A stretch of DNA of 49,063 nt from Patescibacteria group bacterium (GCA_024239035.1 JANBVK010000001.1:572202-621264), one strand, 5' to 3'; shown: positions 1,477-40,459, counted from the stretch's first letter. Translations and numbers: made by a program. The notes: a model not told the origin generated them from the sequence alone.

Positions 1477-1505
1477 TTGACTTCTTACAAGATTTATGTT
1501 ATTTT
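1477..1505 (+). promoter_or_regulatory. putative sigma70-type promoter of the HNH endonuclease gene
   Basis: TTGACT (1477-1482), 17-nt spacer, TATTTT (1500-1505), about 50 nt upstream of the ATG at 1557. Confidence 0.4.
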
Positions 1506-1556: not shown

Positions 1557-2771
1557 ATGAATAAGCAAGAAAGTTTGGAACGAATAATAAAACATTTCAA
1601 GAATAAGGATTTTGATATCAGAAAAAAGCATCCTGGTCATTCTCGTTTTATGGATCAAAAGGTGACGCCTGATGTGTTGCAATTTATTGCAGAGTGCATA
1701 ATCCAGTATACAGGGAGCGTTCCAGGGCCCTTTACCTCACCAGAAATAGAACACTCTGATTACTTTGTTAAAAATGTAACACGAACATTCAATAAGCCGA
1801 CTCCAAAAGATAAACGTACAAAACATGAATACGATAAATGGCCTGCACAAATAATCCAGACACTTAGATTTGCGAAAGTTCTTGAGGAACACGGCAAAAA
1901 AGGTCGCGCAGTTGCATATGTGGTAACCGAATCTGAAATTCTAGAATATATCTCTTTACGATCTCAAAATGCCTATACTTTTCTATTTTATTATTTAACT
2001 AAATTACTGAAAGATAGTGGATTCTACAAGCACTTCGAGCGTTATCGTGACCTCTACGTTGCAGGAAAATTAGATAAAGCCGACTTTTATGATTTTAAAA
2101 AACGTTTCAAAAGATTTATTTTTGCGTATACCGAAATTAAAAAAGATTACGAACCACGTAGAATTTTTCCCAAAGTGATAAACGTTTTAGCATCAGAGCA
2201 CCGTATTCCTGGCACTATTCATGGGCACATGAGTAAGTTTCCCTTTATGATGAGTGATTTAATTTATAACCGAATTAATTTTAGAGATAAAGACAAATCA
2301 AAACACATATCTCGTCAAGAACAAAAGGAGCAAGAAAAAGATACAAAACAACGTAATAAATCTGTATATCGTATATCCAAAGCAAAAAAACGTATTAAGG
2401 AATTACATACTCAAAGTGAGATAAAAGATCAATGGTCAACCGGTAAGGCAACGCAGATACATCATATATTTCCGGAAAAGGAATTTCTACAGCTTGCGGA
2501 TCGTCTAGAAAATCTTATACGCTTAACTGCTACTCAACACAACGAGAAAGCACATCCGAACAACGATACTTCAGTTATTGATCGGGAGTATCAATATATT
2601 TGCTTGATTGAAAAATCCTATAGCGTTGAGGAATCTATCAAAAAAGGAGAATTTGATTATTCACGAGAATCATTTATTGGTGTTATAAACGCTGGGCTTA
2701 AGCAAAACATACCTTATGATTCTTCTTTTGAAGAAATCCGTACAGCGCTTAAAAAGATTTATAGCGCTTAG
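1557..2771 (+). CDS. HNH-motif endonuclease, putative restriction enzyme
   Basis: 404-aa ORF. The C-terminal third carries an HNH core (ATQIHHIFPEKEF ... NLIRLTATQHNEKAH). It is tail-to-tail with a DNA methyltransferase and the stop codons overlap. The N-terminal ~300 aa are unrecognised and could be the DNA-recognition part. Confidence 0.6.
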   Translation: MNKQESLERIIKHFKNKDFDIRKKHPGHSRFMDQKVTPDVLQFIAECIIQYTGSVPGPFTSPEIEHSDYFVKNVTRTFNKPTPKDKRTKHEYDKWPAQIIQTLRFAKVLEEHGKKGRAVAYVVTESEILEYISLRSQNAYTFLFYYLTKLLKDSGFYKHFERYRDLYVAGKLDKADFYDFKKRFKRFIFAYTEIKKDYEPRRIFPKVINVLASEHRIPGTIHGHMSKFPFMMSDLIYNRINFRDKDKSKHISRQEQKEQEKDTKQRNKSVYRISKAKKRIKELHTQSEIKDQWSTGKATQIHHIFPEKEFLQLADRLENLIRLTATQHNEKAHPNNDTSVIDREYQYICLIEKSYSVEESIKKGEFDYSRESFIGVINAGLKQNIPYDSSFEEIRTALKKIYSA

Positions 2772-5290
2772 CACCTAACTCCAAAAAAGAATACAGAGTT
2801 ATTATCTATGTTGAGAGAGCGCGTCCCGTAATTTCTTGCAACTCTATAGAACTCTACAAACTCTTCAGAATTGTAGTAAGCGAGATCTTTTTCAGTAATC
2901 TTAACTTTTTCTTTTGGTATCAAAATCGCTACGGAACCATCAACTATCGTGTTTTCCGGTAAAAAACAAGCTCGGGGGTTATAAGTAAGATTAGGAATGA
3001 GTACTGCATCGTTGTGATTAATGTATTTTGCAATAACCAGATCGTCATACCTATCCACATATGAGTCGTACTCTGGAATATTCACAATCTGATTACTTCC
3101 TATATTTCTTGATTTAAGCACACGAACACGCCCACTCAACCGTGTTATTTTTTTAGTTATTTGTCTATCTCTGTATGCAGTGAAAATTCCGAAACGAAGT
3201 TTCGAGGCGACGTTATCGAAAAAGTTGTCTCTATAAACCAGCCAATAAGGAAACTCTTGAGAACAAATATAATTTTGTTCTCTAAAACTAATCTCATTTT
3301 TTATATAAGATTCAACTAAAGTTCTGTTATCAACTCCGATTTCCTTTGTATTGATAATAAGACTTATTGTCTCAATTTTTACACCCCTAAATCCTTTCTC
3401 CCCATAATCAATAATTTTCTCAATAGCGAATTGTGATACGAATTTGCGGGTGTCGTTGAATTCTGGGGTCGAGAGGAAACTCTTCGGAATAATTAACGCA
3501 ACTATATCTGCATGATAGATGGCTTTTTCTAAGAAGAACGAAAACAAGTTGTTTGTTTTTTTGTTGTTTTTTCCTTTTTTGTATTCAGACAAGAGAGTAT
3601 TGTTGTCTGTAAGTTTTCCGAAAGGAGGATTGCCAACCACTATATCATAATGGATATCTTCATTGGCAAATAACCCATTTTGTCCGAACAATAAGAAGTC
3701 CTCATTTAGAAAATTTATTTTTATATTTTGAGGAATCTCTAGTTTACGAATTAGAATTTTTAGAATATCAATTGCATTTTTATCTATATCAACGACATCT
3801 ATCTCTACGTTTGGAACAGATTTATATTTTTCAATGAGAAGTGGAAGAAAATTGCCTGCTCCGACGGACGGTTCCAGAATTCTCACTGATGAATAGTTAG
3901 ATGCATCTGGTAAGTCCTTAATTATAGTGAAGCAAATATCCTGTCGTGTGTAATAAGCGGCGTGTTTGAATCTGTGAGCATTTGCTAGCTCAATAATCTT
4001 TGTTAATTCAGAAAAAGAATAATTTTCAAGATTCTTCTTCAAGAAAACTTTTAGATTTACCAGATTGCTTAGTTGTTTGCTTGCAATGAGTTTTTCGACA
4101 TCTTTCTCACCAAGTGTTTTGCTTTGGATTGCCGTTTTTATATTCTTGGCGATTTGATTAAAGATAGAAGTAGGAACAGCTTCACCGAGCGATTGGCGAA
4201 TATTCATTTCCTCTTTTTTCAAAAATTTCCGTTTTTGTTCTACTGTTAAATTATTCAACTCTTTTTCTGGAATGTCGGTCCATTTAAATGAATTAGGAAC
4301 AGACATCAATTTCATTAATTCCCTAATACTGAAAACCCGGTTATCTACTGGGTGCACTGTTGCTTGACTTGCCAGAATATCATTTCTGGTATGCACACAA
4401 GTACCGGGCTTATCCCAAAAGCAACGAGTATATTTATCTCCGTTTTTCTTTATGTTAGGGACAATCTTCCCATTTATAATCTTATGTGGACGTCTTTCAG
4501 GCTCTTTGTTATCGAAAGCAGACTCTCCTTCCTTTATTTTCTCAATCCAAGGGAGCATGCGTTTGGCATATGGACGAAAATTATGATAGATATCTCCCTT
4601 TTGGACTTCGCCCATCATCTTAAGTGACGGGAGATCACCAATTACCTTATGAATAGTTCTTTCTGGTTGTAGCGCCGGAATAAAGTCGAGAGGAGTTACT
4701 TCCTGTAAATCTTTACGTACACCCAAAACCAAAGTTCTAGTTCTGCTAGACGGATTGCCGTAATCCTTGAAGTTTATTATTTGGTAATGAATGTTGTATT
4801 TTCCTCCGAGATTTAATTCAATTGTCTCTCTGATTTTTTTATCTTTTCCATCAATGTCAGTGCAAAGACTATTTAAAAATGCTCTCACGTTTTCAAAAAT
4901 AAAGAATTTTGGCCTTATTTCATCCACAAGTTTAATAGACTCAACAACAAGGGAATTGCGAGCTAATTCGTTCCCCTTTTTATGATTTGCAACAGACATT
5001 CCCTGACAAGGAGGTGTTGCAATTAGGATGTCGAGTTCTTTAATTCCATGCTTTATCTTCCAAAATTCAAGTTCTTTTCTGATTTTGTCTTTAGTTTCTT
5101 TCTTAATAATATCGTCGGTTATATAACCGTTCTCGTAAAAGCATTTATTGTTGTGTTTTTGTATTTTCAATCGCCGTTCAATGAATTCAACGCTCGCAAC
5201 ACATTCAAAATTCTCAAGTTTAAATCCGTAGCAACCTACTCCCGCACCACTAAAAAGACTTATATAAGTTAAGGGTGTTTTTGGAATCAT
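2768..5290 (-). CDS. fused DNA (cytosine-5) methyltransferase / N6-adenine DNA methyltransferase
   Basis: Residues ~1-390 carry C5 motifs I LFSGAGVG, IV PPCQGMS, VI ENV, VIII SSRTR and X GEAVP. Residues ~440-840 carry the SAM motif EPSVGAGNF and catalytic GNPPFG of gamma-class (Eco57I/TaqI-like) adenine MTases, plus a TRD-like tail. Confidence 0.85.
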   Translation of the reverse strand: MIPKTPLTYISLFSGAGVGCYGFKLENFECVASVEFIERRLKIQKHNNKCFYENGYITDDIIKKETKDKIRKELEFWKIKHGIKELDILIATPPCQGMSVANHKKGNELARNSLVVESIKLVDEIRPKFFIFENVRAFLNSLCTDIDGKDKKIRETIELNLGGKYNIHYQIINFKDYGNPSSRTRTLVLGVRKDLQEVTPLDFIPALQPERTIHKVIGDLPSLKMMGEVQKGDIYHNFRPYAKRMLPWIEKIKEGESAFDNKEPERRPHKIINGKIVPNIKKNGDKYTRCFWDKPGTCVHTRNDILASQATVHPVDNRVFSIRELMKLMSVPNSFKWTDIPEKELNNLTVEQKRKFLKKEEMNIRQSLGEAVPTSIFNQIAKNIKTAIQSKTLGEKDVEKLIASKQLSNLVNLKVFLKKNLENYSFSELTKIIELANAHRFKHAAYYTRQDICFTIIKDLPDASNYSSVRILEPSVGAGNFLPLLIEKYKSVPNVEIDVVDIDKNAIDILKILIRKLEIPQNIKINFLNEDFLLFGQNGLFANEDIHYDIVVGNPPFGKLTDNNTLLSEYKKGKNNKKTNNLFSFFLEKAIYHADIVALIIPKSFLSTPEFNDTRKFVSQFAIEKIIDYGEKGFRGVKIETISLIINTKEIGVDNRTLVESYIKNEISFREQNYICSQEFPYWLVYRDNFFDNVASKLRFGIFTAYRDRQITKKITRLSGRVRVLKSRNIGSNQIVNIPEYDSYVDRYDDLVIAKYINHNDAVLIPNLTYNPRACFLPENTIVDGSVAILIPKEKVKITEKDLAYYNSEEFVEFYRVARNYGTRSLNIDNNSVFFFGVRC

Positions 5291-5291
5291 A

Positions 5292-5891
5292 TTATTTTAT
5301 TTTTCTTAGAATATTAGTAACCCTCCCTTTTATCTCAATATTCTTTTCATAAAAAGGCTTCATTGTCGGATTCGCCGGTTGCAGTTTCCATTTATTTTTA
5401 AGGCGGTAGATTTTTTTCAATGTTGCCTCGTTTTTGTCAGGTAAGTACGCCACGGCAGTTTCGCCGTCGTTGATTTGATTTTGTTCCCGGACTATTACGG
5501 TGTCGCCGTCAAAAATACCCTCGCCGATCATACTGTCGCCTTGTACTTTTAAAGCATAATGTCGGCCGCTACGGGAAAGCATTCTTTTCGAAACCTGAAT
5601 CGGTTCCGGATTTTCAATCGGTTCAATCGGCTCACCAGCAGTGATGACACCAAGTAAGGGAATCTCAACTAAGCCGTTTGATCGGTCATTGTAAATTGTG
5701 GCGGATCTTGGTTGGTGTTCTTGTCGGTCGAGATAACCTTTCTTTTTTAAATTTTCTAAATGTTCATGTACGGTTGCCACAGAAGAAACACCAAGATGTT
5801 CTGCAATTTCTTCCATAGAGGGGGAGTAGCTGTTCTTTTTGGAGTACTTTTTTATAAAATCAAGAATTTGTTTCTGGCGTTTTGTGAGCAT
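5292..5891 (-). CDS. lexA: LexA repressor (S24 autopeptidase)
   Basis: N-terminal wHTH (SMEEIAEHLGVSSVATVHEHLENLKKKGYL), Ala-Gly cleavage site (ITAGEP), Ser in GDSM and Lys in ATLKK. Length of 199 aa is typical. Confidence 0.85.
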   Translation of the reverse strand: MLTKRQKQILDFIKKYSKKNSYSPSMEEIAEHLGVSSVATVHEHLENLKKKGYLDRQEHQPRSATIYNDRSNGLVEIPLLGVITAGEPIEPIENPEPIQVSKRMLSRSGRHYALKVQGDSMIGEGIFDGDTVIVREQNQINDGETAVAYLPDKNEATLKKIYRLKNKWKLQPANPTMKPFYEKNIEIKGRVTNILRKIK

Positions 5892-5918
5892 AATTTAATA
5901 TTCCTCATTAACATTATA

Positions 5919-5989
5919 CCCGAAGGTAAACCGAAAGTTATCCACAGGTAATAAACAGTTAAATCGCATAGTTTCGGTTTATTTTCGGG
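5919..5989. promoter_or_regulatory. 19-nt inverted repeat (operator candidate) spanning the divergent lexA / GIY-YIG promoters
   Basis: CCCGAAGGTAAACCGAAAG (5919-5937) versus the reverse complement of 5971-5989 (CCCGAAAATAAACCGAAAC) gives 16/19 matches with a perfect 10-nt core TAAACCGAAA. The left arm abuts a minus-strand TATAAT (5913-5918). The right arm lies 12-30 nt upstream of a plus-strand TGcTATAAT (5998-6006). Confidence 0.45.
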
Positions 5990-6062
5990 CCCATCTGTGC
6001 TATAATGGTAGAAGAAAGGTCGTAGGCTGCGCCACCGGCGGCCCAAATTATTAATCAAGCAG

Positions 6063-6344
6063 GTGGGTGAATATAGCAAGATGAGCGAATGGTACAATTT
6101 CCCAGGTGACGTTAGTAATGCGCCTACTGACGAGGGCGTCTACATGTTAGCGGCTGGCAGGATTATAGTATACGTTGGGAGAGCCGATAATCTTCGCGAG
6201 AGATTATCGCAGCATCCGGACTCAAACAATCCTTGTTTACAGAGGAAAAATATCAGTTACTTCGCGTATGAAGTAACTGGTGATTCTCAAAGGCGAGAAC
6301 AGGAATTGATTGACCGGCATAACCCAGAGTGCAACCGCACTTAA
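6063..6344 (+). CDS. stand-alone mini GIY-YIG nuclease-domain protein
   Basis: GVYML...IVYVGRADNLRERLSQH...REQELIDRHNPECN covers the GIY, YIG, Arg, Glu and Asn positions of the GIY-YIG fold. Start is GTG 6063 or ATG 6081. Confidence 0.65.
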   Translation: MGEYSKMSEWYNFPGDVSNAPTDEGVYMLAAGRIIVYVGRADNLRERLSQHPDSNNPCLQRKNISYFAYEVTGDSQRREQELIDRHNPECNRT

Positions 6345-6384: not shown

Positions 6385-6442
6385 TCCCCACGCTTTAATT
6401 ATAACAAAAGGTCGGAGATTTATTTAGAGAATAATAAAAAGT

Positions 6443-6748
6443 ATGCGCAAAAAATTCGGTCCACTCAAAAGTATAAATAAGGCCAATCTTAAAAAAGTAC
6501 CGAAAGATCAGCCGGGCGTTTATGGGATTTTTGCAAGTAGTGGTAGTGTGCAAAAAATTGGCAGAGCTAAGAAAGGTAGATTACCAATTAGAATTAAAGA
6601 AAGTTCTCAAGAAGTTAAAAACTCAAAGAAACAAGCTAAAAAGTTTGCTTTTATTCCCACTCTGACAGTGGAAGATGCTAAAAAGCTGGAAACAAGATTA
6701 ATCCGGAGTAGGAAGCCACCATTCAATAAGGAAAAGAAAGGTAAATAA
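6443..6748 (+). CDS. second small GIY-YIG-like protein with Lys-rich tail
   Basis: PGVYGIF...VQKIGRAKKGRL...KLETRLIRSRKPPFN has the same motif order as the upstream gene but is more diverged. Confidence 0.5.
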   Translation: MRKKFGPLKSINKANLKKVPKDQPGVYGIFASSGSVQKIGRAKKGRLPIRIKESSQEVKNSKKQAKKFAFIPTLTVEDAKKLETRLIRSRKPPFNKEKKGK

Positions 6749-6790
6749 GATACCTAAAAATCTAAAGAAAAAGCTGATAGAATACTATTT

Positions 6791-7741
6791 ATGAATAAAG
6801 AATTAGGAAAGATCAAAAGAGCGGATTTACGAGAAATTTTTAAGGATGAGGCGCGCGATTTTACTCCATGGCTCCAAAAGAATGTTGGTCAGCTTTCTGA
6901 TGTTTTAGGTATAGAAATTGGCGAGATTCGGAGAGAGGAAGGTGTGGGAAATTTTAACTGTGACTTAATAGCCATCGAGACGAATAGCGAAGATAAGATC
7001 GTTATTGAGAATCAACTAGAGTCAACTAATCATGACCATCTCGGTAAATTAATTACTTATGCCTCAGGCGTAGAAGCGAAATACGTCGTCTGGGTTTCTA
7101 AAAGGATAAGAGAAGAACATCAAAAAGCTCTTGAATGGCTTAACGAGAATTCAGGGACCACCACAGTCTATTTCGGCATTGAAGTGTCAGTTATAACTAT
7201 CGATGATTCGAAACCAGCTGTCAGTCTTAAAGTTGTAGTAGAACCAAATACCTGGAGTAAGGAGTTAAAACAGAAAACTGAAAAAATAGATGAACGGCAC
7301 CAAAAATATCTACAATTTTTCACTCGTTTAGTATCAGAATATGAAAAAGTTAAGCCAGAATGGGGTCATTTAACATCTCAACCAAGCTCTTGGCTTCAAT
7401 TCGGCGCTGGTAAGGCAGGATTTAGTTTTGTGTGGGCATTTAGAGGGAGTAATAGATTTGATATTGAGTTATATATTGATACTAAAGATAAAGAAGAAAC
7501 AAAAAATTATTTTGCAGAATTATCAAAATTCAAAAAAGAAATAGATTCCCAGATACCAGATTTAAGTTGGGAAGAACTTCCGGAACGTCGAGGTTCCAGA
7601 ATTGCTCTCTATTTTCAAATGCCAACATCTGCTAGAAATATGAATGATGATCAGATGAATCAATTAATAATTTGGGCCATAGAAAAAATGGATCTATTCA
7701 AGAAAATCTTTCCGAAATATATTCAAAAATTTGGGAATTAA
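6791..7741 (+). CDS. PD-(D/E)xK nuclease-like protein with DUF4268-type C-terminal domain
   Basis: N-terminal NFNCDLIAIE...IVIENQLESTNHDHLGKLITYAS is the D...E-x-Q/K restriction-endonuclease-like core typical of this family. Recognised from memory, not searched. Confidence 0.55.
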   Translation: MNKELGKIKRADLREIFKDEARDFTPWLQKNVGQLSDVLGIEIGEIRREEGVGNFNCDLIAIETNSEDKIVIENQLESTNHDHLGKLITYASGVEAKYVVWVSKRIREEHQKALEWLNENSGTTTVYFGIEVSVITIDDSKPAVSLKVVVEPNTWSKELKQKTEKIDERHQKYLQFFTRLVSEYEKVKPEWGHLTSQPSSWLQFGAGKAGFSFVWAFRGSNRFDIELYIDTKDKEETKNYFAELSKFKKEIDSQIPDLSWEELPERRGSRIALYFQMPTSARNMNDDQMNQLIIWAIEKMDLFKKIFPKYIQKFGN

Positions 7742-7781
7742 CTAATCCGTCGTGATTCAAAAGAGGGGCTAAAGATTAATT

Positions 7782-8588
7782 ATGGGAACTACCACCAAAG
7801 TGTTTGAGCTTATTCCTCTTAACTGGGAAGCATTAGCAGCTATAGCTACATTTTTTGCTGTTATTTTTGCTTTTTATCAACATCGTTCGTATTTAAAACA
7901 AGAAGAAAAGAAGATAAAACGAGATGTAGCTAAAGAAATTGTTATACCAATAAGAAAGAGACTATCGGAATTTCTTAATTATTCTCTATCCGATAATCGG
8001 TATTACAGAAGTTTTTGGCAAGATTTAGAAAAGTTGAAAAGGGAGTTTCCCTTCCAATATCAATCCCTAGAACCAGACATTAGGCAGTTGACAGAAGACT
8101 TTAATATTCGGTTTAGACGTTTTGGTCATCTAAGTATGCAATTACAGCCCCAATTTTTAAAAATTATTAGTGAGTGTCTTAAAAATTTTTTAGATCAAAA
8201 CAAAATATCGTATCAATTAAATAGTGAAATAGATCCTCCTTCTATGGATGATTATGCTAACGCGCATTGGCGTTGTTCTGTCGGGGGGAAAGAACGTTCG
8301 GTTACTTTATACGCTTTGGTAATGAGAAACATAAGTTTTCAAAAGTATCTTAATGAGAGACAAAAAGACGTTGATTTACCGGATACAACAATTGGGAGTA
8401 TTGTATTTAACATTCCTGAAATGAGAAGTGTCGATTTAGATAAAATGCAATCAAATAAACTATTATCTGAAATCGGTTTACAAATAACTAAAGAAAAAGA
8501 TTTACGAGATTATAGAAAAGATTGGAAAAATCTACACGAGGCGGGGCAATACTTGTTAATAAAATTTAATTCTTGGCTATCTTTTTAA
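7782..8588 (+). CDS. hypothetical protein with single N-terminal TM helix
   Basis: 268-aa ORF with a hydrophobic segment (ALAAIATFFAVIFAFY) followed by a charged soluble domain. No family recognised. Confidence 0.5.
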   Translation: MGTTTKVFELIPLNWEALAAIATFFAVIFAFYQHRSYLKQEEKKIKRDVAKEIVIPIRKRLSEFLNYSLSDNRYYRSFWQDLEKLKREFPFQYQSLEPDIRQLTEDFNIRFRRFGHLSMQLQPQFLKIISECLKNFLDQNKISYQLNSEIDPPSMDDYANAHWRCSVGGKERSVTLYALVMRNISFQKYLNERQKDVDLPDTTIGSIVFNIPEMRSVDLDKMQSNKLLSEIGLQITKEKDLRDYRKDWKNLHEAGQYLLIKFNSWLSF

Positions 8589-8637
8589 TGCGAAGATCTT
8601 AACTAAAAAGTTAAAGAAATGATTGGGAAATGAATTT

Positions 8638-8820
8638 ATGAACAATAAACTTATAAAGAGGAAGATAATTAATAATACAGAGTATCTATTTAGACAGAAA
8701 TACGGGGTTTTTAGTATTTATAAAACAGATAAGAACGTTACACAAATGCATAAAATGCAAGAAGTTTTTAAATCACGCAACGAAAGTGAGGCAAGAGAAT
8801 ACTGGAAAAACATTAAATAA
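8638..8820 (+). CDS. hypothetical small protein
   Basis: 60-aa ORF from ATG 8638 (the track uses TTG 8623). No motif recognised. Confidence 0.3.
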   Translation: MNNKLIKRKIINNTEYLFRQKYGVFSIYKTDKNVTQMHKMQEVFKSRNESEAREYWKNIK

Positions 8821-8955
8821 GATAATTTTTGTACAACATATTAAATATTTACCAACAAAAAATTAGGGGGGTTGATTTTTGCGTGGATGTGCTAGGCTAA
8901 TAATAGTACCGAGAGGAAATGTAGTTCACCCTACAACACGCGATGGAGGTGCGTG

Positions 8956-9165
8956 ATGAGTATGCCGAAGGATGGCAAATTTCGGAAACCTTCGTTCAGC
9001 AACATCGATCCTGTTCCGTACTGCGTCACGGTGGCGCGGACGGGAGACGGTCACGTTCTCGTGAAGCATTCGCAAGCCCCGGAGTCGGCGGAGCCGCAGG
9101 AGTACACCGAAGCGGAGTGGAAGGCGTTCACGGATGGAGTCAAGGCAGGCGAGTTCGACATCTGA
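8956..9165 (+). CDS. DUF397-family protein (GC-rich islet 2)
   Basis: GGAGG (8945-8949) lies 6 nt upstream of ATG 8956. FRKPSFS..CVTVA..VLVKHS...EAEWKAFTDGVKAGEFD matches the DUF397 pattern. Hand count is 37/60 G+C at 9001-9060 versus 17/60 at 8701-8760. Confidence 0.7.
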   Translation: MSMPKDGKFRKPSFSNIDPVPYCVTVARTGDGHVLVKHSQAPESAEPQEYTEAEWKAFTDGVKAGEFDI

Positions 9166-40450: not shown

Positions 40451-40459
40451 TTATCCACA
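40451..40459 (+). promoter_or_regulatory. perfect DnaA-box consensus TTATCCACA
   Basis: Exact 9-mer located 14 nt upstream of the -35 at 40473. A second exact copy is at 5938-5946. Confidence 0.3.

Follow-up and report, generated by a model that had tools for sequence, protein, structure and literature searches.

In a stretch of 49,063 nucleotides (nt) from a Patescibacteria group bacterium (GCA_024239035.1 JANBVK010000001.1:572202-621264; hereafter the window, on a source contig of 729 kb), the SOS repressor gene lexA is separated by a single base from the gene for a bifunctional DNA methylase of a type II restriction-modification (R-M) cassette. Comparison with related loci indicates that the window represents the unfused form of an apparent rule in a clade of LexA proteins from the Patescibacteria, by which the gene after lexA is nearly always an R-M methylase gene. 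The arrangement is probably to be explained by read-through from a resident, self-repressed lexA gene into the methylase gene belonging to a type II (IIS-like) R-M cassette that was acquired horizontally. The features on which the analysis rests are listed below, with positions counted from the first letter of the window.

5891..5292, minus strand: lexA, 199 amino acids (aa), stop codon TAA at 5294-5292, coordinates borne out on re-reading
5888-5706, minus strand: winged helix-turn-helix (HTH) of LexA, from the match to PF01726
5660-5319, minus strand: S24 domain of LexA, from the match to PF00717
5639-5634, minus strand: codons of the LexA cleavage site Ala85-Gly86, from an alignment of homologs
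5534-5532 and 5417-5415, minus strand: codons of the catalytic residues Ser120 and Lys159 of LexA, from an alignment of homologs
5288..5294, minus strand: junction TAA-t-ATG, consisting of the lexA stop, one base (5291) and the methylase start
2768..5290, minus strand: bifunctional DNA methylase, 840 aa, ATG at 5290-5288, recognized by its Pfam domains
~5269-4136, minus strand: C5-cytosine domain of the methylase, residues 8-385 (PF00145, E 4e-41; motifs FSGAGVG, PPCQGMS and ENV)
~3985-3341, minus strand: Eco57I-like N6-adenine domain of the methylase, residues 436-650 (PF07669 and PF02384; motif NPPFG)
1557..2771, plus strand: gene for a candidate restriction endonuclease (404 aa), which runs towards the methylase gene and overlaps it by 4 nt at the stops
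~2460-2555, plus strand: HNH-type motif HH...ENLI.LT..QH..AH, invariant in the nuclease and two homologs
1477..1505, plus strand: putative promoter of the nuclease gene, with TTGACT and a TG-extended TATTTT element 17 nt apart

The product of the upstream gene scored 182 bits against the LexA equivalog model TIGR00498 (cutoff 111) and contains the domains LexA_DNA_bind (PF01726, E 9e-22, residues 2-62) and Peptidase_S24 (PF00717, E 2e-27, residues 78-191). Residues A85, G86, S120 and K159 are invariant across 48 homologs, which come from Parcubacteria and other Patescibacteria. A preliminary description of this DNA had credited the protein with the winged HTH, the Ala-Gly cleavage site and the Ser/Lys dyad, and both the domain matches and the invariance support that view. 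No second lexA gene was found in the window, and the scan of species representatives identified one lexA locus per genome with a single exception, the genome bin JAHITV01, which has one plain locus (L065) and one that is fused to a beta-class methylase (L070). The downstream gene encodes the catalytic motifs required of a type II R-M methylase (PPCQGMS, ENV and NPPFG).

We compared the window to related lexA loci in two independent samples. The first, with one genome per species, comprised 80 further loci in addition to L001-L003 (83 in total), of which 76 could be evaluated and 7 could not. A methylase was fused in frame to LexA in 54 of the evaluable loci, adjacent but unfused in 6, and absent by our scoring in 16. 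In the second sample, taken from JGI metagenomes, there were 70 evaluable and 10 unevaluable loci; 31 were scored as fused, 4 as fused but ended by the contig, 20 as adjacent and 15 as having none, so that 55 of 70 carried a methylase. About 79% of the related lexA genes thus have a methylase fused or adjacent in both samples. The surrounding DNA contained nine methylase-like regions in ~740 kb (~1 per 80-100 kb), four of them in the 385 kb upstream and five in the 353 kb downstream, and as compared to the ~1% expected from this local density, the linkage is enriched roughly two orders of magnitude. The preliminary description had raised the question of whether the synteny of lexA is kept in relatives, and the answer is that a methylase follows lexA in 60 of 76 and in 55 of 70 loci, with cassettes that vary and are sometimes absent (L084, L001). 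The typical layout has the methylase gene first and co-directional with lexA, and the nuclease gene distal and convergent. At least seven nuclease families are represented among the convergent partners, including MvaI/BcnI, Bsp6I, His-Me/EndoVII, NgoFVII, AlwI and Alw26I, which argues that the lexA-linked cassettes are real R-M systems.

R-M genes are nonetheless present in several of the loci counted as lacking a methylase; these include a vsr gene followed by a C5 methylase gene, DpnI, an AlwI nuclease in convergent orientation followed by a methylase, and nucleases of the PLD and NOV_C families. On inspection, two of the JGI loci in this category turned out to be lexA-vsr-C5 methylase operons. 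Vsr is a mismatch endonuclease that repairs deaminated 5-methylcytosine. Operons of this kind were observed in L004 (1372-2807), L096 (4601-6135) and L114 (1323-2857), with a 3-nt gap or an 8-nt overlap.

The two proteins are separate in the window (two open reading frames (ORFs), TAA plus 1 nt apart), as opposed to the 54 related loci and the protein P0301, in which LexA and the methylase form one polypeptide. By class, the 54 fusions contain 27 beta-class N6/N4, 16 C5, 7 D12 and 4 gamma-class methylases, and in all ten fused ORFs tested against Pfam, LexA_DNA_bind and Peptidase_S24 were accompanied by a D12, N6_N4, Eco57I or C5 methylase domain. The Ala-Gly site, the serine and the lysine are kept in 53 of 53 aligned fusions. 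P0301 is a fusion of LexA to the methylase family of the window (58% identical over 564 aa). Of the 50 best LexA matches in a set of 1.84 billion cluster representatives, 36 consist of an N-terminal LexA and a C-terminal extension (279-890 aa in total), and a LexA-methylase fusion was present in nine out of ten tested; these counts measure diversity and not frequency, since fusions with different methylase partners fall into different clusters. Nor are the fusions an assembly artefact, because the fused ORFs recur on many contigs, including a complete WWE3 genome. In a tree of the LexA domains, the clade of the window is entirely unfused yet spans all four methylase classes, and the classes are interleaved in the fused clades; it thus appears that cassettes have joined lexA repeatedly and independently. 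Taken comparatively, the linkage of ~79% in two samples and the P0301 fusion lend strong support to the coupling between methylase output and the SOS repressor that the preliminary description had suggested.

The gene records for these fusions are inconsistent. Fused ORFs (e.g., AHB40674.1 of WWE3 with 564 aa, KKQ55453.1, MCX6718457.1) carry names such as LexA, DNA methyltransferase, BseMII or Bsp6I methylase, or hypothetical protein, and some records are split in two or cut to the methylase part only (314-336 aa). As a consequence of this annotation, censuses of the SOS regulon and of R-M genes in the Patescibacteria will miscount both LexA and R-M genes. A phage origin of the LexA clade was considered and rejected, given its near-absence from viral contigs: only 2 of 80 viral matches reach at least 43% identity, and one fused locus (L177) lies on a contig classed as viral.

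The lexA gene is a resident of the genome, and the R-M cassette is a foreign, mobile and replaceable insert, as indicated by base composition, by the unequal similarity of methylase and LexA between loci, and by a related junction from which the cassette is missing. The G+C content at third codon positions (GC3) is 0.395 in lexA, 0.315 in the methylase gene and 0.274 in the nuclease gene, as compared to 0.435 +/- 0.04 in 17 other genes (minimum 0.368). Between the window and locus L088, the methylases are 82% identical, while LexA is only 31% and the nuclease 30% identical. In L084, the closest relative, the LexA protein of which is 94% identical to that of the window, the nucleotide identity is 85% from the divergent gene through lexA, the TAA-t-ATG junction and the first five methylase codons, and the homology stops 15 nt into the methylase ORF, at window position 5276, where the cassette has its left edge. 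The junction and the codons for MIPKT are kept at 825-870 in L084, followed by a remnant ORF of 11 codons, beyond which the contig shows no further match to the window; a convergent ORF of 141 aa after the remnant gave no family match. We take the remnant to be the scar of a cassette that was lost or replaced.

Other close relatives differ in what follows lexA. In L002 (63% LexA identity), a 2-nt gap precedes a 1024-aa Eco57I+TaqI_C+C5 methylase, with a convergent nuclease of the Alw26I family. An N6 methylase follows after a 4-nt gap in L085 (67%), a D12 methylase overlaps lexA by 8 nt in L086 (62%) or follows after 4 nt in L087 (62%), and L003 is an in-frame fusion of LexA and an N6 methylase. 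In a reverse test, methylase homologs were picked solely by their similarity to the methylase of the window (82%, 70% and 70%). All three directly follow lexA, and the spacing amounts to 41 nt or, according to which start codon is called, to 4 or 25 nt. The LexA proteins encoded there share no more than 31-47% identity with LexA of the window, and the surroundings differ.

At the junction itself, the lexA stop at 5294-5292, the single base at 5291 and the methylase start at 5290-5288 were verified as first described. At the corresponding position in relatives, the two genes are 2, 4, 4 and 4 nt apart or overlap by 8 nt. Such tight spacing is ordinary operon packing for this genome: same-strand gaps of 1-3 nt and overlaps of 4 nt are common in the window (e.g., 19148/19150, 29847/29850, 23084/23087). 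Unlike the spacing, the identity of the two joined genes is far beyond chance, to judge from the comparisons above. Two claims of the preliminary description about the translation start did not hold. The 20 nt before the ATG, TCTAAGAAAAATAAAATAAT, were said to be purely A/T and include one C and one G. The lack of a Shine-Dalgarno (SD) sequence was taken to mean that translation of the methylase depends on ribosomes that have finished lexA; this absence is uninformative, because 40 of the 45 genes in the window lack one, and an SD core of at least 4 nt at -18 to -4 is found in only five, of which lexA is one. Between the two genes, the minus strand was found to contain no terminator-like site and no convincing promoter above chance level. 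Nor was there a hairpin that would mask the methylase start, the junction RNA being unstructured (z = +1.13). Co-transcription of the two genes is thereby the better supported of the two claims, and we consider it a well supported prediction, while a strict translational coupling by ribosome hand-over would be plausible.

In several genes of the window, a TATAAT sequence stands 5-8 nt before the ATG (e.g., 9323, 20108, 21945), which suggests leaderless mRNAs. From 9.3 kb onward, nearly all genes in the window are located on the plus strand.

The convergent 404-aa ORF is likely to encode the endonuclease of the cassette; it carries the HNH-type motif and is paired with the methylase family of the window in three contexts (the window, L088 and L092). 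The window protein had no hit in Pfam and no match in PDB or NCBIfam, and the HNH matches (PF01844) of all three nuclease homologs are weak (E 0.024-0.09). Membership in the Alw26I family (RE_Alw26IDE, PF09665) was rejected, with a BLASTP E value of 0.85 and an hhalign probability of 0.1 against the nucleases of L002 and L104. A search upstream of nuclease genes in the window and in related loci identified no LexA-type repeat. Likewise, no HTH ORF that could encode a controller (C) protein was found within 1146-1556, and the translation of a 62-aa ORF at 1372-1560 contains no HTH. In L088 (8719-8940, minus strand), and also in L090 and L091, a 73-aa ORF of the HTH_3/HTH_31 type that resembles a C protein is located immediately 5' of the nuclease gene. 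As the methylase gene of the L088 cassette lies after lexA, two layers of control appear to coexist there.

The region between lexA and the divergent genes contains the following features:

5918-5913, minus strand: -10 sequence of lexA, TATAAT, with the lexA SD sequence GAGGA at 5906-5902
5920..5936, minus strand: candidate LexA operator 1, direct repeat TTTCGGTTTACCTTCGG with a period of 11, in the spacer of the lexA promoter
5938..5946, minus strand: DnaA-box TGTGGATAA, the reverse complement of the consensus TTATCCACA, abutting candidate operator 1
5972..5988, plus strand (opposite orientation): candidate LexA operator 2, TTTCGGTTTATTTTCGG, overlapping the -35 region of the divergent GIY-YIG promoter (TATAAT at 6001-6006)
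6063-6344 and 6443-6748, plus strand: small GIY-YIG ORFs (UvrC/Cho-like N-terminal domain), divergent from lexA

The period-11 repeat occurs in exactly two copies in the window, at 5936-5920 and 5972-5988. The preliminary description had placed a 19-nt inverted repeat in this region (5913-6006); the site stands, and the repeat is made of two direct-repeat candidate operators in opposite orientation. A direct repeat of the form TTTCGGT-N4-TTTCGGT, with a period of 11, is located upstream of nearly every lexA gene, fused or unfused, within or beside a TATAAT promoter, with the lineage variants TTTCTAT, TTTAGGT and TTCGAT. Exact 6-mer repeats were found upstream of lexA in 46 of 83 loci, as compared to 17 elsewhere in 877 kb. 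The exact DnaA-box is present in two copies in the window (0.29 expected), the other one at 40451-40459. Within 140 nt upstream of lexA, an exact DnaA-box was identified in 35 of 79 loci, and one with at most one mismatch in 51 of 79, while 0.003 are expected per 140 nt. The promoter of lexA, and of the methylase with it, may also read the replication status of the cell. The first GIY-YIG gene (6063-6344), located behind candidate operator 2 and its TATAAT sequence, is likely to be an SOS gene; its start is conserved in L084.

Next to these genes, a stretch of low GC content (0.32-0.36) extends from 6400 to 9000 and encodes a DUF4268 protein (6791-7741) and a 268-aa ORF (7782-8588). It may represent further foreign or defense DNA beside lexA.

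From these features we infer how methylase synthesis, SOS induction and the nuclease could be connected. The methylase would be the second cistron of the lexA transcript, or a part of the LexA polypeptide in the fusions, so that its synthesis would be tied to the LexA-repressed promoter, and negative autoregulation would give a steady, self-limiting supply. DNA breaks, including those caused by self-restriction, would trigger RecA-dependent self-cleavage of LexA and thereby raise the production of methylase. The nuclease gene, which is convergent, with its own predicted promoter, no LexA box and no room for a terminator, would be opposed by read-through when transcription of lexA and the methylase gene becomes stronger. 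The net effect would be a damage-induced shift to protection, analogous to restriction alleviation, and an SOS-raised protective methylation would fit the architecture.

Several observations weigh against such a coupling, and some of them favor other explanations. The methylase could be expressed independently, from a promoter of its own in the 3' end of lexA and by ribosomes that have not translated lexA, which we regard as unlikely. A weak promoter-like pair, TTGAGA-16-TAATAT, does occur inside the 3' end of lexA (5338..5311, 9 of 12 matches), and in L088 a TATAAT sequence stands 5 nt before the methylase ATG, inside the 41-nt gap. Moreover, genes without SD and with leaderless-looking starts are the norm here, and the methylase, with its A/U-rich and unstructured start region, could start translation unaided. 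Promoter-like matches in the region are, however, no more common than in shuffled sequence (14 versus 16 expected), the lack of a terminator would allow read-through from the lexA promoter anyway, and the in-frame fusions cannot be expressed separately. It is rather improbable, in our opinion, that mobile defense genes simply tend to insert 3' of lexA, where genome compaction yields tight junctions of no regulatory meaning. The turnover of cassettes fits with neutral docking, as they are dispensable (a remnant only in L084, with 94% LexA identity, and none in L001, with 68%), and so do their foreign composition, the nearby low-GC stretch with the DUF4268 gene and the tight gaps that are usual in the genome. 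Nor is the co-directional slot after lexA strictly confined to methylases: it holds a nuclease and no methylase in L030 (7610-8380), L083 (7655-8518) and L036 (3865-4617), the proteins being DpnI (methyl-directed, 18-nt gap), a PLD-family protein and a NOV_C protein, and in L009 the nuclease gene comes first and is convergent. Neutral docking would not explain why the methylase is almost always co-directional and first, with the nuclease distal and convergent, nor the ~79% linkage against the ~1% expected, and chance insertion would neither make nor maintain 54 in-frame fusions to four methylase classes with the catalytic residues of LexA intact.

The preliminary description also offered the reading that a LexA-type repressor has replaced the C protein of a mobile R-M system; on this view it would travel with the cassette as its controller. 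In this form the idea finds no support, and we consider it highly improbable. The lexA, methylase and nuclease genes are indeed contiguous in many genomes, JAHITV01 carries a fused lexA in addition to a plain one, and a fused locus is present on the viral-classed contig. Against this, it is lexA that matches the host in GC3 and not the methylase and nuclease genes, the methylase is far more similar than LexA or the nuclease between the window and L088, and lexA, its promoter and the divergent gene are common to L084 and the window although L084 lacks the cassette. The methylase classes are also mixed within the LexA clades of the tree, all genomes but one have a single lexA locus, and viral matches at the identity level given above are rare. 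Functionally, LexA may still play a controller-like role. Finally, self-cleavage of LexA could destabilize or inactivate the attached methylase, so that the nuclease kills the damaged or infected cell in a form of abortive infection. The fusions retain the cleavage site and the dyad, and in E. coli, ClpXP and Lon degrade the fragments of cleaved LexA. In the window and in its whole LexA clade, however, the methylase is a polypeptide of its own, so that cleavage cannot touch it and derepression should raise its level, and we judge this suicide mechanism to be very unlikely. Docking, a mobile LexA and suicide are each hard to reconcile with the orientation bias, with the fusions, or with the data on composition and identity. 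Two concerns apply to the proposed read-through from lexA into the methylase gene: more methylase during a phage-induced SOS response could help the phage, and an S24-methylase fragment released by cleavage of a fusion could reverse the sign of the effect.

R-M systems must balance the killing of invaders against the cutting of their own genome, and the known circuits for this are all self-contained in the cassette. In the accessible literature, a scope outside which the study of the Patescibacteria SOS response by Sanchez-Osuna, Barbe and Erill (2017) falls, no description was found that pairs LexA with an R-M system or a methylase, in agreement with the statement in the preliminary description that no R-M system controlled in this manner was known. 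LexA is absent from a 2025 review of R-M biology, and a 2026 preprint on methylases in the Patescibacteria mentions neither fusions nor SOS. In the loci described here, the protective half of the system appears to be plugged into the DNA-damage switch of the host, in repeated, independent events that involve every methylase class and often led to a fusion. If this wiring is functional, it provides a built-in feedback between self-inflicted breaks and protection, it would explain how bacteria with few regulators and many R-M systems tame new cassettes, and the fusions would be natural cleavable repressor-methylase proteins for study. It is conceivable, although we hesitate to call it probable, that LexA and type II methylases form one regulatory and often physical unit across the Patescibacteria, a RecA-cleavable repressor-methylase under a promoter with a conserved DnaA-box, which would make R-M a branch of the response to SOS and replication status. 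If true, this would represent a class of R-M control outside the catalogue of promoter methylation, methylase-repressors, antisense RNA and C proteins, possibly the main mode in the superphylum.

Elements of the arrangement have counterparts in known systems. In the lexA-dinF operon of E. coli, the gene downstream of lexA is SOS-regulated simply through co-transcription, and the overlapping dcm and vsr genes provide a classical case of a methylase that is translationally coupled to its neighbor. Both resemble the wiring in the window, yet neither joins LexA to an R-M methylase. The type IIS systems Alw26I, Eco31I and Esp3I combine m6A and m5C methylation, with one methylase domain per strand of an asymmetric site. 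True members of the Alw26I type are located beside lexA in L002 and L104 (RE_Alw26IDE), as opposed to the methylase of the window, which has the opposite domain order (C5 first) and an unrelated nuclease. The closest analogy in effect is the alleviation of type I restriction (EcoKI, ClpXP), by which cells shift after damage or recombination from restriction to the protection of unmodified self DNA (PMC11109961, PMC4231737). EcoKI achieves this by proteolysis of the restriction subunit, in a type I system and with no LexA-methylase wiring.

The C-protein systems (PvuII, BamHI, Esp1396I), in which a dedicated transcription factor balances methylase and nuclease (PMC12707154), are more distant relatives that share the tie between a transcription factor and this balance. 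C genes are small HTH_3 genes that precede the nuclease gene, act as its activators and move along with the cassette, and none is present in the window. LexA, in contrast, is a resident that precedes the methylase and would act as a repressor and sensor of DNA damage. The two kinds of gene are found together in L088-L091, where a lexA-linked methylase coexists with an HTH_3 ORF that lies 5' of the nuclease gene. Closest among the known types are the methylase-repressors M.SsoII, M.Ecl18kI and M.EcoRII, in which the N-terminal DNA-binding domain of the methylase represses its own promoter, making the methylase self-limiting (PMC12707154). The LexA-methylase fusions share this layout of an N-terminal DNA-binding domain followed by a methylase. 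The differences are that the candidate operator would also serve at least one further gene, the divergent GIY-YIG gene, that the pairing covers all four methylase classes, that the two parts are separate cistrons in the window, and that the DNA-binding module appears to be the full SOS repressor of the host, including its RecA-responsive, self-cleaving S24 domain.

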